Source: a virus
Taxonomy: Duplodnaviria; Caudoviricetes
Virus record (IMG/VR): IMGVR_UViG_3300044961_000667
Length of the DNA: 64,000 bases
Direction: 5' to 3' (one strand)
Positions within the stretch are counted from its first letter, which is position 1, and each line of letters starts with the position of its first letter. Made by a program: the position numbers and the translations under genes. Below, one piece after another: positions 11,577 to 59,181 of this stretch. The notes beneath the pieces are model-generated. The model had not been told where the DNA came from and made no database searches. It saw only the letters and a list, made by a program, of their open reading frames with translations.

Positions 11577-11594
11577 CGCGCAATCGATTGCGCG
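11577..11594. promoter_or_regulatory. Perfect 18-bp palindrome CGCGCAATCGATTGCGCG (copy 1 of 6)
   Basis: Read directly; 12 nt upstream of the terS start. Confidence 0.85.
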
Positions 11595-11610
11595 TCCTCA
11601 TCAGCCGGAA

Positions 11611-12021
11611 CTACTTCTCGGACAGCCCGAGTTCCTTCAGCGCCTGTTCGAGCGTACCACCGTCCAGCAGCGCAGCCATTCTGGTGGCATCGCCGACCGT
11701 CGGTTCTGCTCCCGGCTTCCTGGGCTTCCAGAACAGCCTGTCGCCGATCTGCACCAGCTCCTGGTGGTGCGTCTTCACGAAGCGCAGGAGGCCGCAGTCG
11801 CACAGCTTGACCTGCTTGTCTGCGTCACCGCCCTTGCCCAGGACCGTGAACGCACCCTTGCCGAAGCACCGTCGACAGCCCTTCTTCGCGGAAAGGGCTA
11901 CCTCCGCCGGCTTGACTGGCTCCAGATCGTTCAGCCCGACTCCCAGGGAGTCTCGGACCTGCTGGTCGAGCTTCTTGTAGGGCTCGGGCACTTCAGGCGC
12001 AGCCTGCTCGGGGGTGTTCAC
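11611..12021 (-). CDS. Small Cys-containing (CRRC...CDC) putative zinc-binding protein
   Basis: GTG 12021 overlaps the ParB stop (GTGA). It is the C-terminal 136 aa of track ORF 11611..12636. Confidence 0.65.
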   Translation of the reverse strand: MNTPEQAAPEVPEPYKKLDQQVRDSLGVGLNDLEPVKPAEVALSAKKGCRRCFGKGAFTVLGKGGDADKQVKLCDCGLLRFVKTHHQELVQIGDRLFWKPRKPGAEPTVGDATRMAALLDGGTLEQALKELGLSEK

Positions 12022-12848
12022 GCCGCCGCCTCCGGGGCCGGCTTCTCTTCCGCGGCAGCCGCCACCGGCTCCTTCGGCAGATCCTCGACGTCCTTCTCCC
12101 AGTCCTTGAGCACGCGGTGCAGGAACTGGTTGATGTCGACCTTCGCCTTCATCGAGCGATCGGCGATCGCCTTCGCCTGCTTGAACGTCTCGGCGTCGCA
12201 CGCGATGTAGAGGTGCTCCTTCGAGCCGTACGTGAACACCATGAAGTTCTGCGTGATGGTGTCGCCGTACTCGTTGAAGAGGTGGTTCAGCACCGCCGAC
12301 AGATCGTCGATGGTCTTCACCTCCTTCTTCATCTCGTCGAACTTCTCCAGCATGTCGCCCGACAGCCCCGTGCTCTCCAGGGCCTCGCGGACTCCGCCGA
12401 CGAGCTTCTTGAAAGCCGCCTCGTCGGTGAAGCCCATCAGGTTCTGCATGGCGTCTTCGCCGTACCGCTGAGCCAGCTCGTTGTAGAGGCCGACCATCCT
12501 CTCGGGATCGAGCTTGCCCTTGATGACGTTGAGGCGGACGGTGACGAACTTCTGAAGGTCCACGTCCTTCCACTTCGTCTCCGACAGGACGGCCACCGGC
12601 ACCTCGGCGATGCCGAGCGACTTCGCTGCTCGCCACCGGTGCTCACCACCGATGATCCTGAGCTTCCCGTTCTCCATCGGGATCGCCTGGATCTGGTCGA
12701 TGAACCCGACGTTCGAGATCTCCTCCGCGAGCCGATTGAACTCGCGGTCGCTCATCTGGTTCGGGTTCCAGGGGTTCGGTTCCAGCTCGTCGACCGGCAC
12801 GAGCTTCGACACGTACACCTGGGGGATGTGGCTGTTCGTCTCGCTCAT
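12018..12848 (-). CDS. ParB/Sulfiredoxin N-terminal domain protein
   Basis: VPVDELEPNPWNPN...IIGGEHRWRAAK...VPV motif; C-terminal half not recognised. Confidence 0.88.
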   Translation of the reverse strand: MSETNSHIPQVYVSKLVPVDELEPNPWNPNQMSDREFNRLAEEISNVGFIDQIQAIPMENGKLRIIGGEHRWRAAKSLGIAEVPVAVLSETKWKDVDLQKFVTVRLNVIKGKLDPERMVGLYNELAQRYGEDAMQNLMGFTDEAAFKKLVGGVREALESTGLSGDMLEKFDEMKKEVKTIDDLSAVLNHLFNEYGDTITQNFMVFTYGSKEHLYIACDAETFKQAKAIADRSMKAKVDINQFLHRVLKDWEKDVEDLPKEPVAAAAEEKPAPEAAA

Positions 12849-12858
12849 CGTTCCTCCG

Positions 12859-14013
12859 TCAGCTGGTTGCGTACTTGCGAATCACTTCGCAGACCTGATC
12901 GGCCTGGCTCTCCAGCATGTGAGGCGACGAGGGGAGCAACACGCCCTTGCGAGCGATCTCCTCGGACACGGAGAACTTCCCGGCCTGCCACTGGTTCCGG
13001 TAGATCGGCAGGCTGGCCATCGGCTCGAAGAACGGGCGCACTTCGATCTTCTTCTCCGACAGCTCCGCGAGGAACTTCGGACGATCGATGGGCCGCTCGA
13101 ACAGCAGCGCGTTGAGCCAGTACACCGGCTTGTTGCCCGCGATGGGCTTCTGCACGGTCACCAGCTTCCGGTTCACGAGATCGGCGAGGCGCACTGCGTA
13201 CCAGTCTGCCACCTGGCGCTTCCTCTTGACCACCTCGGGCAGGATGTCGACCTGCGCAGAGCCGATCGCGCCCATGACGTTGCCCATGTTGTACTGCCAG
13301 GCGATCTCGTCGTGGTAGTAGCGCCGCTTGTCGTCGGGGCGACCGAGGTCTCCGAGCTTCTTGATGCGGTGGTACACCTCGGGGTCGTTGGTCAGCGTCA
13401 TCCCGCCTTCGCCGACGCCGATCATCTTGTCGCCGCGGAAGCTGAAGCTGGATGCGTCGCCGACCGCGCCAACCATCACGCTGTCCATGTCGGTGGCGGA
13501 AGTCGCGTTGGACCGCAGAACGCCGATGCTGGCTCCGTGGGCCTCGGCACAGTCCTCGATGAGGATCACGCCCGTCTGGTCGCACATCTTCCTGAGCTTC
13601 ATCGTGTCGCGAGCCGGGTGCCCGTAGATGTGCACGAGAACGATGGCCGTGACGCCTCCGGCCTCGATCTCCTTCTTGGCCGCCTCGAAGTCCATGCCGA
13701 AAGTCTCTCGCTCCACCTCCACGAGCGTCACGCGAGCGCCGGCGTGCACCACCGCGTTCGGCGTGGCCACGCACGTGTAGTTCGGCACGAGCACGCGACC
13801 GCCAGTGACGCCGCAGCCGGCGAGGGCCAAGGTGATGGCGGTCGTCCCGTTGCAGTTCGCGAACCCATGCTTCACGCCGAGCAGCTCGCAGAACTTCCGC
13901 TCGAACTCGTCGACAAAGCGACCACGAGTGAGCCAGTTCTCCTCGAAGCACTTGGCCACGTTGGCCATCTCGTTGCCGCTCAGAAACGAATCAGTCAATC
14001 GCACGACGGACAT
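12859..14013 (-). CDS. DegT/DnrJ/EryC1/StrS PLP-dependent NDP-sugar aminotransferase (perosamine synthase-like)
   Basis: NGTTAITLAL, TCVATPNAV, IEDCAEAHG, SFRGDKMIGVGEGGM (catalytic Lys kept), QYNMGNVMGAIG, RPFFEP. Confidence 0.93.
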   Translation of the reverse strand: MSVVRLTDSFLSGNEMANVAKCFEENWLTRGRFVDEFERKFCELLGVKHGFANCNGTTAITLALAGCGVTGGRVLVPNYTCVATPNAVVHAGARVTLVEVERETFGMDFEAAKKEIEAGGVTAIVLVHIYGHPARDTMKLRKMCDQTGVILIEDCAEAHGASIGVLRSNATSATDMDSVMVGAVGDASSFSFRGDKMIGVGEGGMTLTNDPEVYHRIKKLGDLGRPDDKRRYYHDEIAWQYNMGNVMGAIGSAQVDILPEVVKRKRQVADWYAVRLADLVNRKLVTVQKPIAGNKPVYWLNALLFERPIDRPKFLAELSEKKIEVRPFFEPMASLPIYRNQWQAGKFSVSEEIARKGVLLPSSPHMLESQADQVCEVIRKYATS

Positions 14014-14026
14014 CTCTACCTCCTGG

Positions 14027-14758
14027 TCAGTTCAGCTTCCGGAAAGCGAAGACCCGATAGCGCGGCTTCAGGAACCACAGCAGCTTCTCCCCCAGCCGGG
14101 TCAGCCAGTAGGAGACAGCGTTCTTCCCCAGCAGGCGGAAGATCGCTCCGTCGACTCGATTGACGACCTCGACTGCATCGAGATCGAAGCCAACCTGGAA
14201 GAAGTTGAACTTCATCTTCGACTCGGTCTCGATGTCCTTGTAGCCGAGCCCCTTCTGGAAGGCCGGCACCAGCGGAGGCGCCCACTCCAGCACCATCGCC
14301 ACCGTCCCCGGCTTGCACTTGGCCAGGTAGCCGAACAACGCCTCGCGGTCGTCGTGCGGCATGAAGTTGTAGACGGTGAGCAGCGTGACGACGTCGGCGA
14401 TCCCGATGTGCGTCTCCACGGCAGCGGACGGCACGGTCCCGGCCTCGAAGAACAGCCGCATGTTGGCGCTCTTCGTTGCCCGCTCGACGAACTCAGCGCG
14501 ATCGAGTCCGACGGTCTTCGTGTTCGCCCCGCCCAGCTCAGACAACAGCTTGGTGAAGGTTCCCACGCCGCAGCCGATGTCGACCACCATCGACGCGCCC
14601 TGGAAATACGACTTGAGCCGGCGCAACGCGGCGCTTCGCACCTCGAACGAGTACCCGTCCTGCCACCTGTTCAGGAAGTGACAGGGGTCTCCGCCCTCGG
14701 CGTTCCGCTTCTCCCAGAACGCATCGATCTCACTCTTTGTCCACATCCTGGTCAGCAT
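14027..14758 (-). CDS. Class I SAM-dependent methyltransferase
   Basis: VVDIGCGVG motif I, VGLD motif II. Confidence 0.88.
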   Translation of the reverse strand: MLTRMWTKSEIDAFWEKRNAEGGDPCHFLNRWQDGYSFEVRSAALRRLKSYFQGASMVVDIGCGVGTFTKLLSELGGANTKTVGLDRAEFVERATKSANMRLFFEAGTVPSAAVETHIGIADVVTLLTVYNFMPHDDREALFGYLAKCKPGTVAMVLEWAPPLVPAFQKGLGYKDIETESKMKFNFFQVGFDLDAVEVVNRVDGAIFRLLGKNAVSYWLTRLGEKLLWFLKPRYRVFAFRKLN

Positions 14759-16187
14759 CTTGGGGCAGCTCGTCTTTGGGCTGAACGCTCTTGGCGGTCA
14801 GGCGTGGGTCTTCACTCTGATGATCGTCGTCGTAGTACCGAAGCGCCGTGTCGTAGAGGCACAGCATCGGGAACGATCCGCGGTTCGACCGCGAAGCGAA
14901 GATCATGTTCTTCGTGTACGCGCGGTTGATGACTTCCTTCTGCAGCTGACTGAAGGTCAGGCTCGTCAACCCTTCCTTCACGCAGCGCTCTACCAGCTCG
15001 GCGAGCCGCTTGGCGGGCTTCCTCGGGTACGAGCGCTCGTTGATCGTGGCCAGCATCCTCGCCATGCCCGTGTCTCGGCTGTAGTGATCGGCCGTCCACT
15101 GCGACACGTCGGCGAGCTTCTCCTTCAGCTCGTCGTGGTGTTCCATCATGTACCGCAGGAGCGTGACTCCCTCCTCGGTGGACTTGAACAGCAGCGGGTA
15201 GCCAGGCTTGAGAATCTTCTTCTCGTGCCCGTAGTCCTGGAACGCGACCATCAGCCCCGCGTACAGCCACTCGTGCGGCGAGCTGGGGAACATCTTCAGT
15301 GACTGGATGAAGATGCCGTAGTGACAGCGCGCCATCTGGCGCCACATGTCGCGCTGCGACAGGCCCGTGTGGATCTCGACAGCGCCCTGGCGACGCCCTT
15401 CCATCACCTTCGTCAGCCGCGGGTTCTCCCGAGCCGTACAGATGATGACCTTCACCTCGCGACCGCTGCGGAACAGGTAGTCGGCCAGCTCGATGGCGCG
15501 TTCTCCGCCCTTCGTGTTGGTGAACCGCCCCGAGAAGAAGAAGGTCGGCACCTTCTCTTTCTCAACGCCTTCGATGGCCGCGGTCACCTCCGCCGGCGAG
15601 AAGGCGATCGGCACCACCTGCAGATTCTTGTCGATGCGGTTGAACCACGACGGCGACATCGTCAGCCTGGCCGCTTCGAGCACCGCCTTCTTCTGGAACT
15701 CGCTGAACAGGAACGTGTGACAGCTGGCGTACCCGGTCTGATGAAACAGCAGGTTCGTCTCTTCGGTCTGCAGCTCATCGCTGCCGACGTACTTGGTCGA
15801 GAAGTCCCAGATGTACACCGGCACGGGGCGATAGCCGCCGCCACCGAACACGTTGAAGAACTCCGCGAGCCGACCACCGATGCCGGCGTTGTTCGTCACG
15901 ACGAAGTCGACAGGCCGAGAGCCCCAGATCGGGTTGTACTTGATCAGCTTGTCGTAGAAGACCATCTCGTGCTCGTCGCGCGTGGCGACGAAGTCGTACG
16001 GGATGGTCTCAACCCCAGGGATGGGCTCCTCTTCCTTGCCCTTCTCCCCGTACCTGTGCGGAACGAACCAGGTCACGAAGTGGCCCTGGCTCGCGAGGAA
16101 CTTGGCGAACGCCTTCGTGAGGATGAACGACGAGTCAGCCCGGTAGTCGGACGGGAACTCGTAGCTCGGGAAGATGAGCGCTCTCAC
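14730..16187 (-). CDS. GT-B fold glycosyltransferase (GT4-like)
   Basis: GHFVTWFVP, FFFSGRFTNTKG and a C-terminal donor-binding region (MFPSSPHEWLYAG...YPLLF); cluster context. Confidence 0.75.
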   Translation of the reverse strand: MRALIFPSYEFPSDYRADSSFILTKAFAKFLASQGHFVTWFVPHRYGEKGKEEEPIPGVETIPYDFVATRDEHEMVFYDKLIKYNPIWGSRPVDFVVTNNAGIGGRLAEFFNVFGGGGYRPVPVYIWDFSTKYVGSDELQTEETNLLFHQTGYASCHTFLFSEFQKKAVLEAARLTMSPSWFNRIDKNLQVVPIAFSPAEVTAAIEGVEKEKVPTFFFSGRFTNTKGGERAIELADYLFRSGREVKVIICTARENPRLTKVMEGRRQGAVEIHTGLSQRDMWRQMARCHYGIFIQSLKMFPSSPHEWLYAGLMVAFQDYGHEKKILKPGYPLLFKSTEEGVTLLRYMMEHHDELKEKLADVSQWTADHYSRDTGMARMLATINERSYPRKPAKRLAELVERCVKEGLTSLTFSQLQKEVINRAYTKNMIFASRSNRGSFPMLCLYDTALRYYDDDHQSEDPRLTAKSVQPKDELPQDADQDVDKE

Positions 16188-17149
16188 TCAAAGCACCAGC
16201 CACCGTTCTGGAGGTACCACTCGACCGTCTTCTTGAGGCCCGACTTGAAGTCGGTGAACGGCCGGTCGACGTACTTCTTCAGCTTCGAGGCGTCAGCCAG
16301 CAAGTGGTTGACGTCGAGCGGACGAATGCGCGACTGGTCGACACGCACCTCGCGGGTGAACTTGACGCCCTTCTCCTGGAGAACGTCCATCGTCCACTGC
16401 GCGATGTCTGACACCTTGTGCGTCTCGCCGGTGCCGATGTTGATGACCTCTCCGAAGATGTCGTCGCGCTGGGCCAGCTCGCAGGCGATCTCGGCCGCAT
16501 CGTCGACGTAGACGAAGTCGCGGAACGAGGCCAGGTTCCCCAGCTTGATGACGTTCTCCTTCACGGCCTGGCGGATGATCTCCGGGATCACGTACGGGTG
16601 CGTCTCGCGCGGCCCGTAGCAGTTGAACTGCCGGAAGATGATCAGCTTCAGCCCGCGCTCGTACTGCCACACCCACGCCAGGCGCTCTTGGGCGAGCTTG
16701 GAAACAGCGTAGGTGGAGTAGGGGTTGAGAGGCGACGTTTCGCTCAGGAAAGTCCCCTTGCCGTCCCCGTACAGCTCACTGGACGAGTACAGGATGACTC
16801 TCGGCTTGTGGTCCGACTTCACCACCGCCTCGTAGAGCGCCATGCTGTCGCCGACGTTCGAGTCGAAGAACACCTTGGGCTGGTCGAACGACTTCGGGAT
16901 GTACGGCTCCGCGGCCAGGTGGAACACCACGTCGATGCCGTGCTGGTCGATGAACTTCGGAAGGACCGAGCCGACCGGCTGAATGCACACCTTCAGCATC
17001 GGGTCTTCCGGCAGGTGCTTCTGCGAACCGGCCCGCATGTCGTCGACCACCACGACACGGCACTCCCGGCTCAGCAGCGAGCGAACCAGGGAGGAGCCGA
17101 TGAAACCCGCACCGCCAGTGACCAACACCGTCTTGCCAGAGAGATTCAT
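16184..17149 (-). CDS. NAD-dependent NDP-sugar epimerase/4,6-dehydratase (extended SDR)
   Basis: LVTGGAGFIGS, FHLAA, SSSELYG, YAVSK (YxxxK), RQFNCYGP, RDFVYVDD. Confidence 0.93.
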   Translation of the reverse strand: MNLSGKTVLVTGGAGFIGSSLVRSLLSRECRVVVVDDMRAGSQKHLPEDPMLKVCIQPVGSVLPKFIDQHGIDVVFHLAAEPYIPKSFDQPKVFFDSNVGDSMALYEAVVKSDHKPRVILYSSSELYGDGKGTFLSETSPLNPYSTYAVSKLAQERLAWVWQYERGLKLIIFRQFNCYGPRETHPYVIPEIIRQAVKENVIKLGNLASFRDFVYVDDAAEIACELAQRDDIFGEVINIGTGETHKVSDIAQWTMDVLQEKGVKFTREVRVDQSRIRPLDVNHLLADASKLKKYVDRPFTDFKSGLKKTVEWYLQNGGWCFE

Positions 17150-17192
17150 TTTCAGTCCGCGTCGTTCAAGAGGTCAGTACTGCCCTCGAACG

Positions 17193-17221
17193 GCCATACC
17201 GTCCATGATCTGCTCTGTCAA
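17193..17221 (-). promoter_or_regulatory. Sigma70-like promoter upstream of the dehydratase
   Basis: TTGACA-17 bp-TATGGC in the 120-bp intergenic gap, just after an imperfect hairpin at ~17235-17263. Confidence 0.5.
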
Positions 17222-17269
17222 CGCACGAGAGCCAGGCAAACCCGAGAGACGCCAGGGGTTTGGCCAGCC

Positions 17270-18712
17270 CTACCCGCGCTTCATGTGGAGCTTGGGCCCG
17301 TCGCACATGTCGACGTACCCGAACGACGTCAGCATCCACTTCATCGCCAACGGCGAGATGTACTTGAAGTCCGCCTGAGCCCTGGATCGAGCGCTCATCG
17401 CCTTGTAGACGACGGAGAGGTCGCTCACCTCGGGCCACTGTTCGGCCTTCACCGCCTCTTCGAGAAGCCCGTACGCAGGACTGATGCGCTGCACAGTCTC
17501 GATGTTCCGCTTGGCGACCGGCTCCATGAACTGCTTCACGGCCGCGTCCCAGGCACGAGCGACATCGATGGTGCCCCACGGCTCGGTGAACTCGATGAGC
17601 TTCTTGCCCCACTGCGCCTTCACCTCATCGAAGTTCTTCGCGACGTACGCCAGCTTCACTCGCAGGTCAGCCATCCCCTTCGCGATGAACGGGTAGTCCT
17701 TCGGCAGGCGGTTCCGAATCCACACAGTGTCGGTCACCACGGGGATCTGCCCCGAGCGAATCGCCTCCATGTAGGCCAGGCCGGTGCCTTCGTAGTCGCA
17801 GGCGCACACCAGCACGTCACCTTCGTGCAGCGACTCGATGTAGCGCCTGTGGCCGACCCCCGTTTCCAGCTGGACCTGCTGCTCACCGAAGGGATTCTCC
17901 TTCGGAGTGTGCTGCGTCTTGAAGACTCCCTGGATCGGGAATCCCTTGCTGGTCAGCTCGTACAACTGCTTGGCCACCTGCTCCAGGTGTCGCTTCCCCT
18001 CCAGTGAGCCACCGTGGAAGACGGCAACCTTCCCCGTCTCCCGCCGGCGAGCCGCACGCTTCTGCTCGAACTCGTCGCGCTGCTTGTCGATGGGCGGGTA
18101 GTCGGCGCACGCGCGAATCACGTACGTCCACTTCATGATCCGGTCGACCATCGACGGCGACATGCAGCGGCGGACGACACGAAACAGTTCGTCACGGTCG
18201 TACTCGTTCATCACGAACACCGGACCGACAGCCGCCGCCGAGGAGATGAGCGCATACCCCGCCTCCTCGCGCATCGTCGGCAGGCGATCGTCCAGGCTGG
18301 ACTCGGTGTAGTACGTCACCACCGGAACCTCGATCTGCTGGTACCACTTCCCCGGCGGCACGGTGAACGCCAGCTTCAGCGCAGCCGAGTGGAAGAACTT
18401 CTGGTTCAGCACGTAGTCGAACAGCACCTTCCCCTTCTTCGGGAGAAGGGGCGTCATCGTCTCCATCGAGATCGGCGGGAAGTCGAACTGGCTGATGAAC
18501 GGGTCGCCCATCGGCAGCGTGTTGATCCACGGCTTCTGGAAGTACGAGTCGTCCCAGTTCAGCTCGTTCTTGTTGGGCGGGACGACCCACTCGCAGTAGT
18601 GCCGCGAGCCGATCGCATCCAGGCCCTCCAGCACCGCCTGCATGTTGTTCATCATGCTGTTGCCGGAGAGATCCTTCGACGTGTACAGCTCGATGAGACT
18701 CAGGAAGCGCAT
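17270..18712 (-). CDS. Second GT-B fold glycosyltransferase
   Basis: Start moved to ATG 18712 (TGATG overlap). VFHGGSLEGKRH and YEGTGLAYMEAIRSGQIPVV match the GT4-type E-x7-E donor-binding motif. Confidence 0.8.
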   Translation of the reverse strand: MRFLSLIELYTSKDLSGNSMMNNMQAVLEGLDAIGSRHYCEWVVPPNKNELNWDDSYFQKPWINTLPMGDPFISQFDFPPISMETMTPLLPKKGKVLFDYVLNQKFFHSAALKLAFTVPPGKWYQQIEVPVVTYYTESSLDDRLPTMREEAGYALISSAAAVGPVFVMNEYDRDELFRVVRRCMSPSMVDRIMKWTYVIRACADYPPIDKQRDEFEQKRAARRRETGKVAVFHGGSLEGKRHLEQVAKQLYELTSKGFPIQGVFKTQHTPKENPFGEQQVQLETGVGHRRYIESLHEGDVLVCACDYEGTGLAYMEAIRSGQIPVVTDTVWIRNRLPKDYPFIAKGMADLRVKLAYVAKNFDEVKAQWGKKLIEFTEPWGTIDVARAWDAAVKQFMEPVAKRNIETVQRISPAYGLLEEAVKAEQWPEVSDLSVVYKAMSARSRAQADFKYISPLAMKWMLTSFGYVDMCDGPKLHMKRG

Positions 18713-19749
18713 CACTTGCTCCAGTCCTTCGCGTTCTTCAGCGACTCCTCGATGTACTTTCTCACGTCGCCCTTCACCTCGTCCCACAGCTTCGCGCCCT
18801 CGTCATCCGTGTTCCAACCGAACTGCTTGGCGCAGATGTCCAGGGCTTCGTTCCTCCACCGAATCGGACGCTCGTTGGGGAGCAGCAGAGCGGACTCGAA
18901 GAAGAACATCAGCATCCCCATCTTGAAGGGGTCGATGTTCCGCTCCGTGCCCACCTTCGAGAGCGCGTTCTTGCCGCGGTAGGTGTGCAGGTCGAGCCCG
19001 TACCAGTCGACCGTGTCGGCCATCTCGATGTCGCCAGGCTCGACAACGATGCCAGGCCACGGAATGGGCTCCTGCTTCGGCTGGTCGATGAGCGCCATGA
19101 CGATGGCGCAGATCAACATCTCCTCGTCGCCCAGCATGCACTTCCGCACGAGCCGCCAGAGGCAGCCCTCGACGATCTGCTGCGTCCAGGGGTTGGTCGC
19201 CTCGGCTCGCGTGGTGATGACCCTCACCAATCCGTGACGAGCCAGGAACTCCTTCGCTCGGTGCGCCGCCATGCAGATGCGAGACGCCTCGATGTAGTCC
19301 TTCGCGTCGAGCGCCTTCTCCAAGCCCGTCACGGAGTACCACTTCGTCGTCTTCAGGTTCTCGTCCGCGATGGTGTAGAGCCAGCCCGCCTCCTTCGACT
19401 TGGGCAACGTCGCCAGGTTCGCGATGAGCGAGTACAGCCCCTTCATCTGCTCGGGACGCATCGGGCCTGCCGTCTTCATCATCGGCCACGTCTTGGCCTC
19501 GGCGTAGACCCGCGGCATGAACTCCCACCCCAGGTCCTCGACGCAGATGATCGGGATGCGCTTGCACAGCGCAATCCGCTCCTCCGTGCCGTGGGACACC
19601 ATGCCGGCGGCCGTGGCCAACGCCTTCTGGACCTCAGTCCGCCGCAGGTGCTTCTGGAAGGCGGACTTCAACTCCGCCGGGTGAACCTTCGACTTCCGTG
19701 GCCCCTCGAAAAGGGCCACCTGGACTGCTGCTTTCTGAGCCACTGACAT
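18712..19749 (-). CDS. RarA/MgsA C-terminal-like domain protein lacking the AAA+ ATPase
   Basis: LKSAFQKHLRR...KRIPIICVEDLG resembles RarA SALHKSIRG...RRLVIIASEDIG; later YGLDLHT. No Walker A. Confidence 0.6.
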   Translation of the reverse strand: MSVAQKAAVQVALFEGPRKSKVHPAELKSAFQKHLRRTEVQKALATAAGMVSHGTEERIALCKRIPIICVEDLGWEFMPRVYAEAKTWPMMKTAGPMRPEQMKGLYSLIANLATLPKSKEAGWLYTIADENLKTTKWYSVTGLEKALDAKDYIEASRICMAAHRAKEFLARHGLVRVITTRAEATNPWTQQIVEGCLWRLVRKCMLGDEEMLICAIVMALIDQPKQEPIPWPGIVVEPGDIEMADTVDWYGLDLHTYRGKNALSKVGTERNIDPFKMGMLMFFFESALLLPNERPIRWRNEALDICAKQFGWNTDDEGAKLWDEVKGDVRKYIEESLKNAKDWSK

Positions 19750-20094: not shown

Positions 20095-20994
20095 TCACCC
20101 CGCCGCTTCTTCTTCGCCCTCGTCGAGAGCGCCCAGGCTTCCGGCGACGTCAGCGCCGCAGAGGATCTCCTTCGCCTCGGGGTCGACCGCCACGATGCGA
20201 ATGCCCAGGAGCTTCTCGAACTTGCGCATGAACTTCGACACGTTCGCCTTCTTCGTGCCGCGCATGGCGTCGTTCGTCGCGAGCCAGTCCTGGCAGATCA
20301 GCTCCAGGAGGTAGCCCTTCTTGTCGGAGCCAGCGAGTTCCTTCGCCCGCTCCATGGCCGCGGTGACCGTCTGCAGCTGACCTTCGTAGAGGCCGAACGA
20401 GATGTGCGACAGCTTCTCGATCTTGTCCTTGTCTCCGTCGGAGTCGCTGGAGCCGGCACCGGCCTTGTCAGCAGCCTCCTTCTCCTTCTTCGCCTTGAGC
20501 ACGGCACGAGCCTCGTCGGCGAGCATCGTCGACGACATGTCACGAGCCTTCTCGATCCACTCGTCGGCGTTGGCCGCGCTGACCACGCCGACCAGCTCCT
20601 TCACCTTCGTCCAGCCGAGGGGACGGATCTTCTCGATCACGGTCTCGTCGCCCAGCTCGACGCCGAACCAGCTCCAGATCGAGATCAGGTACTGAGCCTT
20701 GCGGATCGCGAAGTCCAGCTCCTTCTCGACGTACTCGTTCCAGCTGGCGTAGCCCCACTGCAGGTAGAGCGGCTTGCCGTCCTGGCCGCCGTTCCACACC
20801 TTGTAGAGCAGCTGCGCCAGCTCGAAGTACGCGTTGTCGATCGTGTTCTTGAGCGTGACGATCCGACCACGAATCAGCTCGGGGTCTTCAGCCACCTCAC
20901 GCGGAATGCCCGTGGCGCCGTTCAGCACCACCACGTTGTCCTTGCCGAGGACCTCGGCGTCAACCGTCTGCTCTCTCGACTTCTTGCTTCCCAT
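20095..20994 (-). CDS. Hypothetical, probably DNA-binding protein
   Basis: Start MGSKK after AAGGAG. The WGYASWNEYVEKELDFAIRKAQYLI segment resembles phage HTH proteins of the DUF3102 type. Confidence 0.6.
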   Translation of the reverse strand: MGSKKSREQTVDAEVLGKDNVVVLNGATGIPREVAEDPELIRGRIVTLKNTIDNAYFELAQLLYKVWNGGQDGKPLYLQWGYASWNEYVEKELDFAIRKAQYLISIWSWFGVELGDETVIEKIRPLGWTKVKELVGVVSAANADEWIEKARDMSSTMLADEARAVLKAKKEKEAADKAGAGSSDSDGDKDKIEKLSHISFGLYEGQLQTVTAAMERAKELAGSDKKGYLLELICQDWLATNDAMRGTKKANVSKFMRKFEKLLGIRIVAVDPEAKEILCGADVAGSLGALDEGEEEAAG

Positions 20995-21307
20995 TGTGTG
21001 CTCCTTCTCGTTCATCGGTGAAAACCACTTCCTCACAGCGGATCTCCACCAGATCGTTCTGACTCTGGTGACCAGTCCGATTCATCAGCTGCCCGGCGAC
21101 GATCGCGTAGCCGCCCTTCCTCGCTCGATCCCTGCAGATCGAGACAAGCCCTCCATACACGTTCACGCGAACCCAGGTGGCCGCGCGCCCCTTTCCCTCC
21201 ACCGCCAGGAGGAACGAGCACGCCTGCTCTCCTCCGTTGGTCGCGCCGAAGTTGATGCTGCCGCCGATGTTGCCGGCCACGACGACCGAGTTGATCCCTC
21301 TAGCCAC
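20960..21307 (-). CDS. ssb: Bacterial-type OB-fold single-stranded DNA-binding protein without an acidic tail
   Basis: GTG 21307 with AAGGAG. INSVVVAGNIG...ACSFLLAVE...WVRVNVYG...KGGYAIVAGQL...VEIRCEEV follows the SSB pattern. Confidence 0.75.
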   Translation of the reverse strand: MARGINSVVVAGNIGGSINFGATNGGEQACSFLLAVEGKGRAATWVRVNVYGGLVSICRDRARKGGYAIVAGQLMNRTGHQSQNDLVEIRCEEVVFTDEREGAHNGKQEVERADG

Positions 21308-21947
21308 GCTGGTCTCCTTGCGTGCGTCGGACCCACAAGGCCCGCGCCACAACGTACGCATCCATCTGGTCGTCACCGCCTTCTTCCTTCGGCGGGAACG
21401 ACAATCCCCGCGCGAGAAGCTGCTCGCGCACTTGTTCCTTGACCGGCTTCACCTCAGCCCTCTTCGTCTTCTCCCACTTGCCGTCGACCTTCTTCCGAAC
21501 AGACTTCTGCTGGATGACGATCCCCACGTCCTTGCGCGCAGCCTGAGGCGGGATGGGCGTCGCGACGACACCGAGAGCCAAGAACAGCTGACACTTCGTG
21601 AACCCCTGCAGCTCGGCCAGCGGCTCTCGGCCGAACTGCTTGCCGAACGCATAGCCTTCGATGGCCACCTCGGGCTTCCCGAGGTCAGCGTGCTTCTTGA
21701 TCAACCCCAGCACCGAGTTCGCGATGCCGATGACCCGCTCCACGCGCTGCCGCTCGTTCTTCCCCGACAGCTGGTAGCCGAACACCTCGTACTGCTCGGC
21801 CACGCCGTCCGGCCTCAGCACCGCCACCGCGGTGTGGGTGAGCGACATGTCGAGCCCGACGATCTTGGCGGAGAGCGGAGCCGGCTTCGGCTTGAGCGCT
21901 GCCAGGAGATCCTCCTGCTCAGGAGATGGACGAAGATCGTCTCTCAC
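21300..21947 (-). CDS. RuvC-like Holliday junction resolvase
   Basis: IVGLDMSLTHTAV, VAIEGYAF, LAELQG, DQMDAYVVA. Confidence 0.85.
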   Translation of the reverse strand: MRDDLRPSPEQEDLLAALKPKPAPLSAKIVGLDMSLTHTAVAVLRPDGVAEQYEVFGYQLSGKNERQRVERVIGIANSVLGLIKKHADLGKPEVAIEGYAFGKQFGREPLAELQGFTKCQLFLALGVVATPIPPQAARKDVGIVIQQKSVRKKVDGKWEKTKRAEVKPVKEQVREQLLARGLSFPPKEEGGDDQMDAYVVARALWVRRTQGDQRG

Positions 21948-22888
21948 GGGGAGTCACCCAGCTTCGTCTTGCAGCCGAAGCACTTGGTCACGAGCTGACA
22001 CTCCTTGGCCCGGTCCGTCTTGGCGTTGTCGCAGACGGTGAGGCGAGGAGGCAGCTCGACGTCGCCGCCGATCCTGATGCCGCGGCGAATGGTCGTGATC
22101 ATCGACAGGACGTCATCTACCAGCTTCTGGTCGTACTCGACCTCGTAGACGCGCATGGCACGGAACCCGTAGCCACCCTTGTTCTGGTAGACGATGAGGC
22201 CGTCTTTCTGCCGCAGGCCAGTCATCCACATGTACACGTTCGTCTGGATGACGTGCGCGACGTTGGGCGACATGTCGACCTTGTTCTTGAACCCGTCCGG
22301 GTTGATCGACTTGAACTCGACGATGCGCTTGCCGTCTCCGAGGTCCAGGATGCCGTCAGGGTGACCGCGCAGCTTGTACTGCTGGTTCTCGACCTCGATC
22401 TCCCGGTAGAGGAACCACGAGCCACCACAGTCGGTCACCGCGTAGACGCCGGGTTGCTCCTCGATCACCTTCTTGCCGTCGCACAGCTTCGGCCTGCCGA
22501 TCGGCACCGCGTCGGTGCCGTGCATCTTGCCGCAGTCCATGCACTTCCAGAGGCCATAGAGCACTCCATGGGGCCCCAGGAACTCGTTCTGCATCACGAA
22601 GTGCCACCCGGAGCCGATGCCGTAGGTCAGCTGCTCATCCGGCGTGATGATGTCGGACCGACGCACTCCGCAGACACCAGCCAGAACCTCTTCTCTGGCG
22701 CAGAGGTACCCAAGCGACGAGACTCGAAACCACGCATCCGCGGAAGGGGGCTCTGAGTCGCCGGCGTATCGAGCCGTTCGCCTCAAGAACTCCACGAGGG
22801 ACTTGTCTCGAACACCCTCAGCCGGAACTTCGGCGGGCTTCCCGGCCCGCCCATACAGCATCTCGTGAATGAGATCTGCGAACGCCAT
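21944..22888 (-). CDS. Cas4-like PD-(D/E)xK exonuclease
   Basis: SSLGYLCARE, GHPDGIL, IVEFKS, QTNVYM and three C-terminal Cys (1+3 Fe-S pattern); internal CxxC insert. Confidence 0.8.
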   Translation of the reverse strand: MAFADLIHEMLYGRAGKPAEVPAEGVRDKSLVEFLRRTARYAGDSEPPSADAWFRVSSLGYLCAREEVLAGVCGVRRSDIITPDEQLTYGIGSGWHFVMQNEFLGPHGVLYGLWKCMDCGKMHGTDAVPIGRPKLCDGKKVIEEQPGVYAVTDCGGSWFLYREIEVENQQYKLRGHPDGILDLGDGKRIVEFKSINPDGFKNKVDMSPNVAHVIQTNVYMWMTGLRQKDGLIVYQNKGGYGFRAMRVYEVEYDQKLVDDVLSMITTIRRGIRIGGDVELPPRLTVCDNAKTDRAKECQLVTKCFGCKTKLGDSP

Positions 22889-22899: not shown

Positions 22900-22917
22900 C
22901 GCGCAATCGATTGCGCG
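22900..22917. promoter_or_regulatory. Perfect 18-bp palindrome CGCGCAATCGATTGCGCG (copy 2)
   Basis: Abuts the GAGGAG RBS of the Cas4-like gene. Confidence 0.85.
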
Positions 22918-41080: not shown

Positions 41081-41137
41081 TTGCTCTCCCTTGGTGCCAC
41101 CTGTTGCCCGTTGAGTGTCGGGGTCACCACCAAGCAG

Positions 41138-41171
41138 ATGAAACCACCGTTTCTCCTGCTTTGTCAAGAGG
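41138..41171 (-). promoter_or_regulatory. CCTC-TTGACA-18-TTTCAT promoter upstream of uvrD
   Basis: -35 at 41162-41167. Confidence 0.55.
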
Positions 41172-45579: not shown

Positions 45580-47374
45580 TCAGGCCCTACGCCCTTCTCC
45601 TGGGAACAGGATGTCGCTGGCCCTCATGGTGGCGTGGTGCTCTTCATCGATGAGGCCAGCGCGGCGGAGTGACGACAGGTAGTCGGCGAACGTTCCACCC
45701 GACACCTCCATCTCAACCATCTCGGCGAGTTCCTCTCGCGTCATCCAGCTCGGGTACGACGCGACCAGCACGTTCAGCATCTTCCTCGCGCCAGCCTTCA
45801 GGTTCCGGCTCCACATGCTCACCAGCTCGTGAGTCGAGGCCGGCGCCGATCGGGCCGCGGGTCCCAGGAACTGCATCCCGGACGCGGAGATCTTCAGCGA
45901 CTGAGCGTTCTCCTCCACCAACCCAGCCCGACGGAGCGCCGAGAGGTAGTCGGCGAACGTCCCGCCCGACACCGCCATGCCAACCAGGGTGGCCAGCTGC
46001 GGCCTGGTGGTCCACGCGCCCGGTCGCGCCGAGAGAGCGATCAACATCTCCTTCGCCCCCTTCTTGATCGTCACGTCGCCGATCGCCTGCGGTCCCGGCC
46101 GCGCGTACTGCGCGAGAGCCTTCTTCACCGACTCCGGCAATAGACGAGGCTCCGGTGCGCGGGGGCATCGGGTTGTGCGGCGGGTAGAGCCCCGGTCCGA
46201 TCACCTCATGGGGGTTGAAGGCCGGCATCGCCGGTTCGACGTGAGGGCGACCGATTGAACGTGCAATCGATTGCGCAGCATCCTTCGTGTCGGCAGCCGC
46301 ACCGGCCAGCTTCTCCGCCGCCTTCTCCAGACGCTTCAGCTGCTTTTCGGTCAACACCGGAACCTCCTTCACGACTTCCTTGATCTGCACCTTCGTTTCG
46401 GTCGGCCGACTCTTCAGCTCGCCTTCCAGCTGAAGAATGCGACGCTTCAGGAAGTCGGGGTCTGCCTTCTCGGCGTCCTCCACCATCGACTTCAACGACT
46501 CACGCAGCTTGGCGACGTCCACCGCGGCCAGCCTCTTCGGCTCGACGAACTCCTCGCCGAACTCCGGCGTGGCCGACGAGTCGAACGTCAGCTTCCGGTT
46601 CACCTTCACCGTCCGCGACACCTTCAGAAACGACGGGCTCCACAGGTGCGCCATCCCCGTGTCGAGCCCTGGCAGGGTGTCAACCAGACTCAGTTCTTCC
46701 GCCTTCGTCACCTTGTCGCTGACCCACGCGATGATCGCCTTCTTCTCGTGGCTGCCGATCGTGCGGTGAGCGAGCACTGTCCCTGCCTGGTTCAACACCC
46801 GCTTGTGCACCGCCTGCGGCTGCTGAGTGATCAAGGACCAGCCGACGCCGTAGTTGCGCCCGAGCTTCAACAGCCGCTCAACTCGGTTGAGCATGACGCC
46901 TTCGTCCTTCTCGGGCGTCTGAGGGGCGAACGTCTGCGCTTCCTCCCAGAAGACGTGCACCGGCGACTTCGACTTCTTCTTGGCCTGGAAGAACGCCTCG
47001 GCGAAGTCTCGAACGAACCGCTTCGTCTCCGCCGTGGTGAACTCCGACACGTCGAGCACCGCGGAGATCTGCTTCTCCACGAGCACGCTGGCCATCAGCC
47101 CGCCCTACTCTGGCGTGAGCGGCAGATCGCCATGCTCCCCGCCAAAGACTGTGATCGCGAACCCATCCTTCTTGCCGTCCGCAGAGCTTCGCAGCCCCCA
47201 CCAGACGCCCACGGGATCAAGAGCGCCAACCTGCGCCCCGACCTCCAGCATCAGCTCGGCCAACTTGGTCGCGGAGTACGTCTTGCCGCCGCCGCTTTGC
47301 CCCAGGAAGGCGAACTTCTGCGTCACAGCTGCCAGCGGCAGCCCCAACCCATCTGCAAACGCGAGCGTCTTCAT
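45580..47374 (-). pseudogene. HerA/DUF87-like ATPase with tandem wHTH C-terminus, interrupted by an in-frame TAG (47105-47107) and a frameshift (~46140-46200)
   Basis: GQSGGGKT ORF and WEEAQTFAPQ/LITQQPQ ORF are in one frame separated by a single TAG. The GGTFADYL..LRRAGL repeats are in another frame. Confidence 0.7.
46261..46276. promoter_or_regulatory. GTGCAATCGATTGCGC palindrome (copy 4, intragenic)
   Basis: Encodes AQSIA within the ATPase gene. Confidence 0.75.
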
Positions 47375-47681: not shown

Positions 47682-49043
47682 TCAGTTGAGGATGTCGGAG
47701 AGCCGGGCGGCGGGCGGCGTGGTGCCGCGCTCCACCAGCGACATCACGATCGTCGACCACATCTCCTCGATCACCTTCTGGTGCTCGATCGTGGCGTCGC
47801 CAGACTTGCTGCGCTCGTGAGCCATCTCGTGAACGAGCGTCTCCAGCGTGTCCTTCACGGTCTTCAGCATCTGACGACCGACCAGGATGTGCTCGTTCTC
47901 GCGCAGCCCGTGCAGCGACGGGTCCTTGAACTCCGCGATGCGGAACCGGCTGAGCGGCACGTCCGGCGCCCCGAGCGAGGCGAGAGCGAACGCCTTGAGG
48001 AACACATCGCTTTCCTCGGTCGTCAGGTCGCTGACGCCGAAGGTCGCCGAGATCAGGTTCTTCGAGTCCGACTTCACCGTGTTGATGGTGCCGGTCTCCT
48101 CCTTGAGCACCTCCAACATGGCCTCAGGGACGACGATGCCGCGCTTCCCGTAGAATGCAGCCTCCTCCATCTCCTGCGGCTGACGGACCGGGATCGCGTT
48201 CTCACCGAACGTCTCCCGGAAGCGGGCGGCCATCTTCTCGCGGAGCTTGTTGCCGGTGTTCCACGTGTACCGGAGGTGCTCGACGTCGGGCTTGTTCTCG
48301 CGCATCAGGCGGTCGACCATCTCGATCAGATCCGGCCGCAAATCGACGGCCTCGTTCCAGATGGTCGCGGTCACGTTCGAGAGATCCCAGCCGTCGATGA
48401 GCCGGCGGTCGCGGTCGATCTTCGCCACGTTGGGCGGCAGGTCGTAGCCGCAGACGTAGTTGCCCACCTGCTGGACGAAGATGCCGCCCACGTAGATGTG
48501 CCCACGCTTCGACTCGTCGAAGATCACCGCGCCCTTGCTCGTGGCCACCGTGTCAGTCGCCGCCAGCAGGAACAGCAGCTTCCGCTGCAGCGACTCCCAG
48601 TCGGCCGGCTCGACGTCAGCCACCTCGATCTCGATGGCGTTGCGCTCCTTCACGACGCCCTTCTGCACGTCGATGACGAGCACCATCTCGCCGCCGAACT
48701 TCTCCGAAGGGGCGACCTCGGGCACCCACTTGTCGGCGCCAGTGCGGATCACCGTGCGATGCCCACTGTTCACCAGCGCCAGCAACGCCAGCTTGTAGCC
48801 CTCGCCGAAGCGGCCGAGCTGGTCGGTGCGACCCCGCTTGGACGTGTACCCGACGAGCAACGTCCGCGGCTCCAGCGTGGCCCCCTTGGTCACCAAGCGG
48901 ACCATCTTGTCCTTCTCGACGTAGGTGACGGAGAACTCGTGCCCGTCCTTCTTGGCATCGAGGCCGTTCTGCATCAGCTCGCGGATCGCCTCCCAAAGGG
49001 ACCAATCAACGTAGTTCTTGCCAATGGTCATTTCGATTTTCAT
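47682..49043 (-). CDS. GHKL (HSP90/MORC-like) ATPase with C-terminal HExxH motif
   Basis: AIRELMQNGLDA, GRFGEGYK, C-terminal TLVHEMAH. Start MKIEM overlaps the upstream stop (ATGA). Confidence 0.8.
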   Translation of the reverse strand: MKIEMTIGKNYVDWSLWEAIRELMQNGLDAKKDGHEFSVTYVEKDKMVRLVTKGATLEPRTLLVGYTSKRGRTDQLGRFGEGYKLALLALVNSGHRTVIRTGADKWVPEVAPSEKFGGEMVLVIDVQKGVVKERNAIEIEVADVEPADWESLQRKLLFLLAATDTVATSKGAVIFDESKRGHIYVGGIFVQQVGNYVCGYDLPPNVAKIDRDRRLIDGWDLSNVTATIWNEAVDLRPDLIEMVDRLMRENKPDVEHLRYTWNTGNKLREKMAARFRETFGENAIPVRQPQEMEEAAFYGKRGIVVPEAMLEVLKEETGTINTVKSDSKNLISATFGVSDLTTEESDVFLKAFALASLGAPDVPLSRFRIAEFKDPSLHGLRENEHILVGRQMLKTVKDTLETLVHEMAHERSKSGDATIEHQKVIEEMWSTIVMSLVERGTTPPAARLSDILN

Positions 49044-49651
49044 CTTCGTCCTCTCTTGTTCAGCCCGCGCACGCGAGCCATCAGGTCCTTCACTTGAAGC
49101 CGCAACAACGGAACACCATCTTCGAGACGAGTCCGACAGAACCCAAGAACGATGCTGGCAACATCTCGCTTCACCACCAACAGATTGCCTACCGCCGACA
49201 AGAATCCACCAACCTCCTGCGCCGTGTGGAGCTGCCAAACGAAGCAGTCTCGTTGCTTCTTCTTCTTGTTGGGCCTGAACCCGATCGTCCCGACACCCAC
49301 AAGGGCGACTAGCTCCTCCTGCATACATCTTGTGGCGCTCGCCACGCTGACCCTCGGATTGACCCAGCGCTCGCCGTGCTTACCCAGTCCGACGTATCCC
49401 TCCCCGTCCACGATTCCGGCCACCCACCCGAGCTTCTCTTTCGGAAGCCCACGCAAGCGACTTTCAAGTTCGGCCCAAGCGCGCTGTCGAACTCCGTTCC
49501 GAAGTCCTCTGACGATGAGCCAGAAAGCGCTCTCGCTGCACTTGAACCGTGAAACGATCTCGCCGTGATGGACGCCAGACTCGTAGAGCCGTCGGATTTC
49601 TGACTTCTGCTCCTCCGTCAGCCTGGTCTGGAAACCTTTGCTGTTTCCCAT
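49040..49651 (-). mobile_element. Free-standing LAGLIDADG homing endonuclease with N-terminal HTH
   Basis: WVAGIVDGEG; low GC relative to neighbours. Confidence 0.85.
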
Positions 49652-49812
49652 GTCTCAGACTAGCACAAAAGTCAACAGATTCAATTGCTTGCGCCCTCCC
49701 ACAGGCCCCAGTCCACGTAGTTCTTCGCCACCGACAACTCGATCTTCGCCATCTTCGTCTCCTCCTCACATCGCGTTTCAATCGTTCACCGGCGGGAACC
49801 GCCAGCGGTACT

Positions 49813-51629: not shown

Positions 51630-51662
51630 AAGCTACCAGCTTACGCTAGTTTCGTCAAGAGG
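51630..51662 (-). promoter_or_regulatory. CCTC-TTGACG-17-TAGCTT promoter upstream of polX
   Basis: -35 at 51653-51658, -10 at 51630-51635. Confidence 0.75.
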
Positions 51663-52318
51663 AAGGCATCGAGAACGCGCGAGTGCACGTCGTCGAACTC
51701 TCCCATCGCGTTGACGACAGTCCACTTCGTATTCACCTCGATGCCGCCCAGCTGAGACTCCATCTTGAACAGCGCGAGGTAGTTCTCCCTCACGCGCTCC
51801 AGCAGGCCAGGCTGCTTCTCGTACCTGTCTCGTCGCTCCGGACGGCGACGCACCGACTCTGCCGGCGGGATGTCCATCAGAACGACGAAGTCGGGCTCGG
51901 GCAGGAGATCGTGGATCTGCCTGAGCCACTTCGCGTCAATCCCGTCGGCCGCCCCGTAGGCAAACCCCGACGGCCAATACCGATCGAGCACCACGTCGTG
52001 GTCCTCCATCAGCGCCTTGTAGATCTTGTGGACCGCCTCGAAGCGATTCACCGTCATCATGCACTGGAACATGAGCGGGTCGAGCTTCGACGGGTACTGC
52101 GGCGCTCCCTCTTCGTTGGTCGAGAACGCCTTCCACTGCTGCGTCAGGTGCTGCTTGATCGCCTGGCCGAGGGGCGTCTCGTAGTCGGGGAAGCTGAAGA
52201 GCTGCACCTTGCGGCCCCGCATCTTCAGATCCTCGACGAACTTCTTCGAGTGACTGTTCTTGCCCGACGCGTCGATGCCCTCGAACACGTACATCCGGCC
52301 TCTGCGATCTTCGCTCAT
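51641..52318 (-). CDS. tmk: Thymidylate (dNMP) kinase
   Basis: VFEGIDASGK, FPDYETPLG, VVLDRYWPSGFAY, PDFVVLMD, RYEK. Confidence 0.92.
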   Translation of the reverse strand: MSEDRRGRMYVFEGIDASGKNSHSKKFVEDLKMRGRKVQLFSFPDYETPLGQAIKQHLTQQWKAFSTNEEGAPQYPSKLDPLMFQCMMTVNRFEAVHKIYKALMEDHDVVLDRYWPSGFAYGAADGIDAKWLRQIHDLLPEPDFVVLMDIPPAESVRRRPERRDRYEKQPGLLERVRENYLALFKMESQLGGIEVNTKWTVVNAMGEFDDVHSRVLDAFLLTKLA

Positions 52319-52327: not shown

Positions 52328-52343
52328 GTGCAATCGATTGCGC
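52328..52343. promoter_or_regulatory. GTGCAATCGATTGCGC palindrome (copy 5)
   Basis: Intergenic, 9 nt upstream of the tmk start. Confidence 0.8.
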
Positions 52344-58358: not shown

Positions 58359-58376
58359 CTCCGTCTCCTTCGGGGA

Positions 58377-58784: not shown

Positions 58785-58834
58785 TCACTTCCTCCTGGTT
58801 CCCGCCTGGGTTGGCGGAGGTGGATTGTCAGAAC

Positions 58835-58867
58835 ATCATGCCAGACGATGCGTGTTTCGTCAAGAGG
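58835..58867 (-). promoter_or_regulatory. CCTC-TTGACG-17-CATGAT promoter
   Basis: -35 at 58858-58863. Confidence 0.75.
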
Positions 58868-58873
58868 CCGCGC

Positions 58874-59086
58874 TCACTCCCACTGAATGTCGCCCGGCTC
58901 AACCTTCACCGACCCGCCCTGCTGGCAGTGCCTGCAGAGGAAGTCGACGATGAACGGCGCTTCGTCGGCCTGCGTGGCCGACGTTGGATCTGCCTCGTGC
59001 TTCCCGTCGACTGCGACCTGGCAGTGCTCGTAGCAGGGAGGGGACTTCTTGCAGACCTTGCACTTCGCCTCGCTCTTCTTGCCCAT
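58874..59086 (-). CDS. Small zinc-finger protein
   Basis: CKVC...C..HC...CRHC. Confidence 0.6.
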   Translation of the reverse strand: MGKKSEAKCKVCKKSPPCYEHCQVAVDGKHEADPTSATQADEAPFIVDFLCRHCQQGGSVKVEPGDIQWE

Positions 59087-59096
59087 GGTCGTTTCT

Positions 59097-59162
59097 CCGG
59101 GTGTAGCGGTATTCAGGCTCGGACGTTCGCTCGTGGGCGGCTCTGTGCGGCAACGTCGCGCA
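59097..59162. repeat. ~66-bp dispersed repeat, copy A
   Basis: First 20 bp (ccgggtgtagcggtattcag) identical to 62532-62551; similarity continues to cgtcgcgca. Confidence 0.85.
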
Positions 59163-59165
59163 ACC

Positions 59166-59181
59166 GTGCAATCGATTGCGC
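59166..59181. promoter_or_regulatory. GTGCAATCGATTGCGC palindrome (copy 6)
   Basis: Intergenic, 4 bp from parS. Confidence 0.8.

Follow-up and report, generated by a model that had tools for sequence, protein, structure and literature searches.

A lineage-specific palindrome array in the genomes of large T4-like phages and a candidate phage-encoded reader

A 64-kb stretch of viral DNA (IMG/VR record IMGVR_UViG_3300044961_000667, hereafter the window), part of a phage genome of ~200 kb, carries six scattered copies of a single 16-bp palindrome, GYGCAATCGATTGCGC. Our results show that these copies belong to an array that is conserved in distant relatives, symmetric, more evenly spaced than random placement and exchanged for other palindromic words in sister lineages. 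The six copies may best be understood as belonging to a set of docking sites that spans the genome and is recognized as double-stranded DNA, to which a phage-encoded, two-fold symmetric DNA-binding protein is predicted to bind, and in this broad form we regard the explanation as probable. The leading candidate for the reader is the 313-amino-acid (aa) product of the gene at 20095-21036 (minus strand), with a predicted ParB/Spo0J/Noc-like helix-turn-helix and without an N-terminal CTPase domain. The explanation as a whole, array and this particular reader combined, is more tentative and falls a little short of an even chance. The phage has T4-type portal, protease and major head proteins, and every gene of the window lies on the minus strand. 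It is present in runs from hot-spring and mat, bioreactor, wastewater, sludge and soil samples, and RNA runs contain it as contigs. Megablast of the window against isolated phages gave no match, hence no close isolated relative, IMG/VR scans that used one protein at a time, Tmk or the Cas4-like protein, returned no relatives, and the 12-mer core of the palindrome was not found in a relevant context in the literature.

The exact 12-bp core, GCAATCGATTGC, occurs six times (starts 11580, 22903, 35120, 46263, 52330 and 59168), all where a preliminary description of this DNA had placed them, and a scan of the window allowing up to one mismatch in the core or up to three in the 16-mer gave no copy beyond the six. 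The first two sites are, as described before, perfect 18-mers (CGCGCAATCGATTGCGCG), and sites 3 to 6 read GTGCAATCGATTGCGC on the plus strand. Copy 1 (11578-11593; GCGCAATCGATTGCGC, a perfect 18-mer with its flanks) ends 13 nucleotides (nt) before the ATG of a 239-aa gene (10845-11564). Copy 2 (22901-22916) lies 12 nt before the ATG of a PD-(D/E)XK/Cas4-like nuclease gene (21944-22888), between the stop of a GroES-like gene and the GAGGAG ribosome-binding site of the nuclease gene. Copy 5 (52328-52343) is found 9 nt before the ATG of tmk (thymidylate kinase, 51641-52318), in the short gap that follows the stop of a 78-aa gene. The preliminary description had put these three distances at about 10 nt. 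The name terS given at that time to the 239-aa gene derives from position only, since the gene is located upstream of a terminase-like open reading frame (ORF) and its sole family match is a PHROG of unknown function; we refer to its product as TerS-like. Copy 6 (59166-59181) is intergenic, 23 nt past the stop of the gene at 59205-59591 and 79 nt ahead of the next start. The two remaining copies are intragenic and are both read as A-Q-S-I-A, copy 3 (35118-35133) in a replication-initiator-like gene (34594-35766, HTH_36) and copy 4 (46261-46276) in the linker of a HerA/FtsK-like ATPase ORF. Both use codons that are rare in this DNA, with CAA making up 6.6% of Gln, ATT 9.9% of Ile and GCA 5.0% of Ala codons. 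These figures bear out the earlier observation of a shared peptide written in rare codons, and the general idea drawn from it, that selection acts on the DNA itself as a putative protein-binding site, holds; the observation of the preliminary description is confirmed and its interpretation partly supported.

The enrichment of the word is pronounced. With the sites masked, Markov backgrounds of orders 0 to 5 predicted 0.0002-0.004 copies of the core, a range that includes the earlier estimate of ~0.002 and that compares with the six observed, so that the enrichment survives every order used. Six copies were reached in none of 100 dinucleotide shuffles, and the most repeated 12-, 14- and 16-mer of the window is the palindrome word. 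Palindromes as such are unremarkable in number in the window (21 vs ~24 expected); what stands out is that a single word accounts for six of them. The G+C content, previously put at ~67%, was measured as 63%.

Relatives were collected by an exact 16-mer scan of IMG/VR, which gave mostly chance single matches plus nine related loci. Sites were counted at up to one mismatch, and the word read backwards served as control, with 0-1 matches per genome. By this measure 17 sites were found in G001 (54 kb, G+C 56%), 6 in G002 (22 kb, 53%), 8 in G004 (17 kb, 55%), 59 in G006 (232 kb, 44%) and 13 in G007 (IMG/VR 3300014204_000124; 130 kb with terminal repeats, 53%). Copies of the consensus RYGCAA-YYRR-TTGCRY range from 2 to about 70 per distant relative, with 71 sites counted in G006. 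Protein identity to the window is ~24-45% for G001 to G005 and 24-39% for G006 and G007, and the motif-bearing phages span 44-63% G+C. The preliminary description had let its reading depend on conservation in related phages, and the motif is indeed kept across this deep divergence. An analogous motif was not detectable in the two 20-kb loci L074 and L075, which is uninformative at one site per 6-28 kb. A further word, GATTATGCTGTAA, is non-palindromic, occurs in 12-13 copies in G007 and may represent a repeat of promoter type.

The anatomy of the motif is informative as to what is being recognized. Within the consensus the arms GCAA/TTGC are invariant and nearly all variation falls in the central YYRR. 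This variation is blind to orientation: the flanks are GC 27 and GT 12 times on the left and GC 30 and GT 13 times on the right, the centre variants TTGA and TCAA occur 6 vs 5 times and TCGG and CCGA 5 times each, and in G006 the TCAA/TTGA centre is about equally frequent in either orientation. Compensatory changes in the arms were looked for among the motif copies of the relatives and none were seen. At a gene position shared by G001, G004 and G005 the encoded peptides are CNQLH, RNRLR and CNRLH while the DNA motif is kept. The residues vary in step with the degenerate positions of the word. Invariant arms, strand-symmetric variation and the lack of compensatory changes together argue for recognition of duplex DNA by a symmetric dimer, and the motif comparison points to a double-stranded DNA site rather than an RNA hairpin or a promoter.

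A second set of relatives, ten large genomes obtained by a portal-profile scan, includes some with the portals closest to that of the window (50% identity). The word GCAAYYRRTTGC is missing from all ten. A de novo palindrome search showed that most of them carry a dispersed palindrome of their own: CGCAAG-YR-CTTGCG in G012 (17-24 copies) and G010 (7-11 copies), GCGAACC-YR-GGTTCGC in G014 (30 copies), a TA-centred 22-mer in G011 (8 copies), CTGCTGGCGCCAGCAG in G013 (6 copies) and ACGAATTCGAATTCGT in G015 (20-23 copies). The same search gave no array in the low-GC genomes G016, G017 and G019. When the T, G and C word types, G being the type of G012 and C that of G014, were cross-counted in every genome they never co-occurred. 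In G010 the genome's own word lies 157 nt downstream of the homologue of the 20095-21036 gene, and at that same place G001, G002, G005 and L042 have the window-type word. An own word at a shared position suggests that sites are rewritten upon a change of lineage and that a phage-encoded reader changes along with them. The comparison points to a recognition specificity that differs between lineages and to a reader encoded by the phage.

The sites are also distributed in a characteristic way. In the window their spacing is more even than random placement (coefficient of variation, CV, 0.30, P 0.011), and the same was observed for G006 (CV 0.59, P <5e-5) and, with other words, for G014 (CV 0.56, P 0.0006), G012 (CV 0.58, P 0.009), G013 (CV 0.18, P 0.0013) and G015 (P 0.03); spacing was not significant in G010 (P 0.13) and G011 (P 0.20). 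About half of the sites are in coding sequence. Their positions are only partly conserved among relatives, where sites are found before parB, between the terminase-like and portal genes, before the TerS-like gene and inside genes, and placement before particular genes is not conserved. Enrichment at gene borders in the relatives gave no excess by two crude ORF-based measures and a mild one only by a third, 18 sites just before starts vs 10.9 expected (P 0.02). As the genome is compact, a fixed 16-mer is most readily accommodated after a stop codon and ahead of the ribosome-binding site that follows. An even spread over coding and non-coding DNA, without regard to strand and with sites that move between relatives, makes it most likely that the array would mark or organize the whole phage chromosome, rather than act as a switch for individual genes. 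Of the options listed in the preliminary description, a nucleoid protein comes closest to this even, genome-wide and strand-blind array, the binding itself being a prediction.

A candidate for the reader is the 313-aa protein of 20095-21036, which belongs to phrog_17202, a family of unknown function. A homologue was found in 13/13 array-bearing genomes and none was found in the three low-GC genomes without an array. In the AlphaFold model (predicted local distance difference test, pLDDT, 82) residues 1-50 are disordered and a helical domain follows directly; no ParB_N was detected by Pfam. Residues ~62-185 are predicted to be ParB/Spo0J/Noc-like: in VIA-align the top 12 rows for the model were all ParB/Spo0J/Noc DNA-binding domains, with Z 8.4 and a root-mean-square deviation of 2.3 Å over 95 residues for 4umk_B, and Z 7.9 over 101/105 residues for 6y93_A. 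A Foldseek-independent search placed ParB-parS (6s6h) first (Z 6.8), with KorB and SopB further down. Most of the nine members of the window type keep the stretch RKAQYL[IV]SI...GWTK, which carries substitutions in G004, G006, G007 and P0134 and differs in every other motif type. In a comparison of 12 genomes, identity of the helix-turn-helix was 0.49 in pairs of the same motif type vs 0.36 in pairs of different type (permutation P 0.009), and the same-type excess for the portal was +0.04 (P 0.12). Between the window and G010 the portal is 0.54 and the helix-turn-helix 0.27 identical, and between the window and G006 the figures are 0.39 and 0.51. Based on the model and this covariation, the 313-aa protein may be the binder of the array, an assignment we make tentatively and with slightly less than even confidence.

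Several observations weigh against this reading. Z scores of 6.8-8.4 are modest and lie in a range where a common helical arrangement can score. The candidate sequence had no match to ParB, to any PDB chain or, by hhalign, to the ParB-like protein of the window, and its Pfam matches to DUF3102 are weak and below threshold. The covariation rests on few independent word switches, and UvsX is also closer within motif type (+0.08, P 0.05), so that shared ancestry explains part of the helix-turn-helix signal. Furthermore, motif type is followed just as closely by the candidate's C-terminal portion as by its helix-turn-helix, identity in the latter is just 0.29 between the two G-type genomes, and G001 and G014, which are of different types, show no drop in helix-turn-helix identity. 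The 60-kb fragment G018 has the candidate gene and no detectable array, and in a gene-content comparison seen from G007 no core protein strongly tracks the motif. Finally, three of the six window copies lie just before starts or ribosome-binding sites, which could mean an additional local role.

Possibly, the array is bound by a different phage-encoded protein, such as the initiator-like protein (HTH_36), the TerS-like 239-aa protein, the HerA/FtsK-like ATPase or a product encoded outside the window, and would then serve as multiple origins, as packaging-recognition sites or in translocase guidance. We consider this somewhat unlikely, yet the best of the alternatives, as lineage switching and symmetry demand a phage factor without naming one and as the study covers 64 kb of the genome. 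An initiator would fit with copy 3, which is mid-gene in the initiator-like gene in the way that the lambda origin is located within gene O, and with a variant copy at the contig start in G001, beside an initiator fragment. Against it, no initiator homologue was detected in G006 and G007, which share the motif, and at one per 3 kb the sites are packed too closely to be origins. Another perfect palindrome of 16 bp, ACCTCACATGTGAGGT (35340-35355), present as a single copy inside the initiator-like gene 210 nt from copy 3, is a possible origin element. The TerS-like protein is slightly more similar within motif types, a weak excess (+0.06, P 0.064), and is unusually diverged between the sisters G001 and G014 (0.28 vs ~0.47 for the portal), but its putative N-terminal DNA-binding helix is conserved across motif types and does not co-vary with them. 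The HerA/FtsK-like ATPase has two C-terminal winged-helix repeats, and against its role as reader no homologue of the ORF was detected in G006 and G007.

Some further features were observed in and around these genes. The coding frame of the HerA/FtsK-like ATPase ORF (45580-47374) shifts near a C5 run at ~46161-46170; variant strains are one base short at this run, which leads to an ATPase fused to two tandem winged-helix repeats (GGTFADYLSxLRRAGL), and the change reflects either a genuine frameshift variant or a mistake in assembly. The terminase-like ORF (7698-10841, 1047 aa) has an in-frame insertion of ~373 codons at 8127-9247, which looks like an intein since it is missing from the 99.8%-identical IMG/VR contig L001. 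The UvrD-like helicase (38180-41167) also has an intein-splicing match. The regions 44038-44828 and 48983-49692 are skipped (789 and 708 bases, respectively) in contigs of other strains and look like mobile endonuclease cassettes, with a LAGLIDADG match in 43593-44984. A D12-class N6-adenine DNA methyltransferase gene is located at 41164-42027, and a homologue is found in G006.

The sites could alternatively be operators of a host repressor of the LacI/GalR family, by which the phage would sense the sugar-acid metabolism of the host or soak up the repressor, a reading that we judge improbable. The resemblance reported in the preliminary description is real: an even palindrome of 16 bp with a central CG (6/6 in the window) fits the pattern of the LacI family (PMC4052901), whose even operators span 16-22 bp around a conserved central CG. 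Moreover, in bacteria the exact 16-mer precedes altronate dehydratase genes by ~20 nt (17 loci), and it is also found upstream of genes for LacI-family regulators (11 loci), PfkB kinase and KDPG aldolase, settings that match the LacI-family hexuronate regulons (UxaR/UxuR/KdgR) of Bacteroidota (PMC4052901). In bacteria the exact 16-mer is a real LacI-family operator. For the phage the host LacI reading fits poorly. The palindromes of the sister phages (CGAACC-YR-GGTTCG, the TA-centred 22-mer and CTGCTGGCGCCAGCAG) fall outside the LacI pattern, and a central CG is found in just ~5/71 sites of G006, the centre being mostly CA/TG in G006 and G014. The proportion of coding sites, about half, compares with <1% of LacI sites, and the window copies are intragenic or 9-13 nt from starts, vs non-coding positions, typically 30-140 bp upstream of the start of the regulated gene, for LacI operators (PMC4052901). 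In addition, the 44-63% G+C span of the motif-bearing phages implies varied hosts, and even spacing is not expected of a regulon. A phage-encoded LacI was also considered and rejected, as PF00356 had no match in G001, G002, G004, G006 or G007 and our own LacI profile had none in the window and the relatives. Restriction avoidance was rejected as the cause of the non-CG centre in G006, where TCGA and ATCGAT, the latter contained in the centre of the window palindrome, are not depleted.

The more general proposal, a regulon operator of the ordinary sort, is likewise disfavoured: placement before particular genes is not conserved in relatives and there is no overlap with sigma-70-like promoters. 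Ten such promoters were found in the window (CCTCTTGACGAAA-N14-TAnnnT), and 0/10 overlap a palindrome. Their -35 boxes (minus strand) are near 62483, 58856, 57149, 51651, 50926, 47641, 41160, 35841, 29748 and 26914; they are located 55-70 nt upstream of early and replication genes, and none is present at the structural-gene end of the window.

Slightly more improbable still is that the motif acts on RNA or on transcription of single genes, as a hairpin by the ribosome-binding site (a translational operator or processing site) or as a new late promoter. This would account for the three of six copies that end 9-13 nt ahead of a start codon and for the mild pre-start excess in the relatives, but a fixed 16-mer is simply easier to fit between the genes of a compact genome. 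Moreover, the spectrum of variation is identical on both strands, compensatory changes are missing from the arms, the flanks would pair as a C.A mismatch in the coding strand, and many sites are deep within genes. The distance from motif to ribosome-binding site is too short for the -10 element and start site that a promoter would need, and the palindrome is directionless, yet all genes are on one strand.

The least probable reader is the ParB-like protein of the window (12018-12848, minus strand; ParB_N plus a helical domain), which would load on the palindromes as on parS. In its favour, the model is similar to Noc, ParB and KorB across ~200 residues, the motif is directly before the parB ribosome-binding site in G001, G002, G005, L041 and L042 and copy 1 is 430 bp downstream of the parB-like gene. 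Against it, G006 (59 sites) and G007 (13 sites, with terminal repeats) have no ParB_N gene, G004 has none at the syntenic place and G014 lacks one, and no ParA/CbiA-type match was found among the ~50 window ORFs scanned with Pfam. As G006 and G007 carry the motif without a ParB_N gene, the phage ParB proposed in the preliminary description is not required as reader and is effectively excluded as a general binder, although it may cooperate at the array where present; the contig that encodes the ParB-like protein is 200 kb. A canonical parS word, GTTCCACGTGGAAC, is found at 59187-59200, 5 bp from copy 6. It is single, is not found in the relatives, is disrupted by small deletions in variant strains and is probably due to chance.

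Between the ParB-like gene and the region of the candidate binder lies a block of amino-sugar and glycosyltransferase genes (12859-19749; DegT aminotransferase, methyltransferase, glycosyltransferase and epimerase/dehydratase). The block is absent from this place in G001, G002 and G005, and other sugar genes are found there in L076 and L338.

Returning to the array and its putative phage-encoded reader, the anatomy of the motif suggests a half-site of RYGCAA(Y), with half-site centres that would be separated by roughly a turn of the helix and flank a flexible pyrimidine-purine step. The own palindrome of every lineage indicates that protein and sites appear to co-evolve, and the two may do so lineage by lineage, as a private recognition code. 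Marking or organizing the chromosome in this way could serve compaction, could allow the phage to tell its own DNA from that of the host or of rivals, or could recruit the products of the neighbouring packaging genes. The full version of this idea, a private and fast-evolving code in large T4-like phages that is read by a clamp-less ParB/Noc-like protein encoded beside the packaging genes, is in our view rather doubtful. If true, the code would let a phage tell its own DNA from that of its host and of co-infecting relatives for packaging, protection or compaction, and would be the phage counterpart of the species-specific uptake sequences of bacteria. If it holds, such a code would define genome marking by phages as a new class of system, with uses in assigning metagenomic phages to lineages and in engineering orthogonal DNA-binding pairs. 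The sister phages are a natural set of matched protein/site variants, which makes the question directly testable.

Among known systems, the stoperators of Cluster A mycobacteriophages, also discussed in PMC4351075, are asymmetric, point along the direction of transcription and are used by the lysogenic repressor. Like these, the palindromes are a short site repeated many times along a phage genome, frequently in narrow gaps between genes, and binding by a phage protein is predicted; unlike these, they are symmetric and unoriented, and the window showed neither a repressor nor an integrase. With LacI/GalR operators the sites share the very word, the even 16-bp palindrome with a central CG that precedes uxaA-, kdgK- and eda-like and LacI-family genes in bacteria. 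They differ from them in their coding or 9-13 nt placement, copy number, even spacing and, in relatives, a variable centre.

The closest mechanistic models may be Noc with its NBS sites and KorB with its OB sites, in which dispersed palindromes of 13-16 bp are bound by a dimeric ParB-type helix-turn-helix (structures 6y93, 7ol9, 8qa8 and 1r71). Palindromes of similar length are scattered over the replicon here as well, and it is to these domains that the model of the candidate aligns best. The analogy has its limits, as the candidate has no sequence-level homology to these proteins, the replicon is a lytic-type phage genome and the binding is a prediction. In addition, and unlike Noc, KorB and ParB, the candidate is without the N-terminal CTP-binding (ParB/Srx) clamp domain. 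In contrast to ParABS, a ParB with an N-terminal CTPase domain is not encoded by every site-bearing replicon, G006 and G007 being the exceptions.

Of the arrays described so far, that of Cluster O mycobacteriophages (Corndog, Ryadel) comes nearest. It consists of a 17-bp dyad repeat, TGTTCGG-N3-CCGAACA, which is present in >30 copies and for which the authors predicted a dimeric DNA-binding protein (PMC4351075, PMC6439249). In both cases one dyad-symmetric word of 15-18 bp occurs in many copies genome-wide, far above chance (6 in the window, 13-71 in relatives), with invariant arms, a variable centre and no link between orientation and transcription, and copies are found both between and inside genes (2/6 window copies are intragenic) and are not tied to promoters. 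The differences are that Cluster O phages are siphoviruses of mycobacteria while the phages studied here form a large T4-like group (130-230 kb) from environmental samples, and that the palindrome here is even, 16 bp long and has a pyrimidine-purine centre. Furthermore, the word here changes by lineage, even spacing is shown statistically and a candidate binder is proposed. Taken together, the array is a further instance of an unexplained class, the genome-wide palindrome arrays of phages. The dispersed dyad repeats of Cluster O have been unexplained since 2015, and arrays of this type are now found in an unrelated group, the large environmental T4-like phages. New here are the switching of the word between sister lineages and a candidate reader that can be named. 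That the word is swapped, yet length, symmetry and even spacing are kept, makes the phenomenon look both general and selected.

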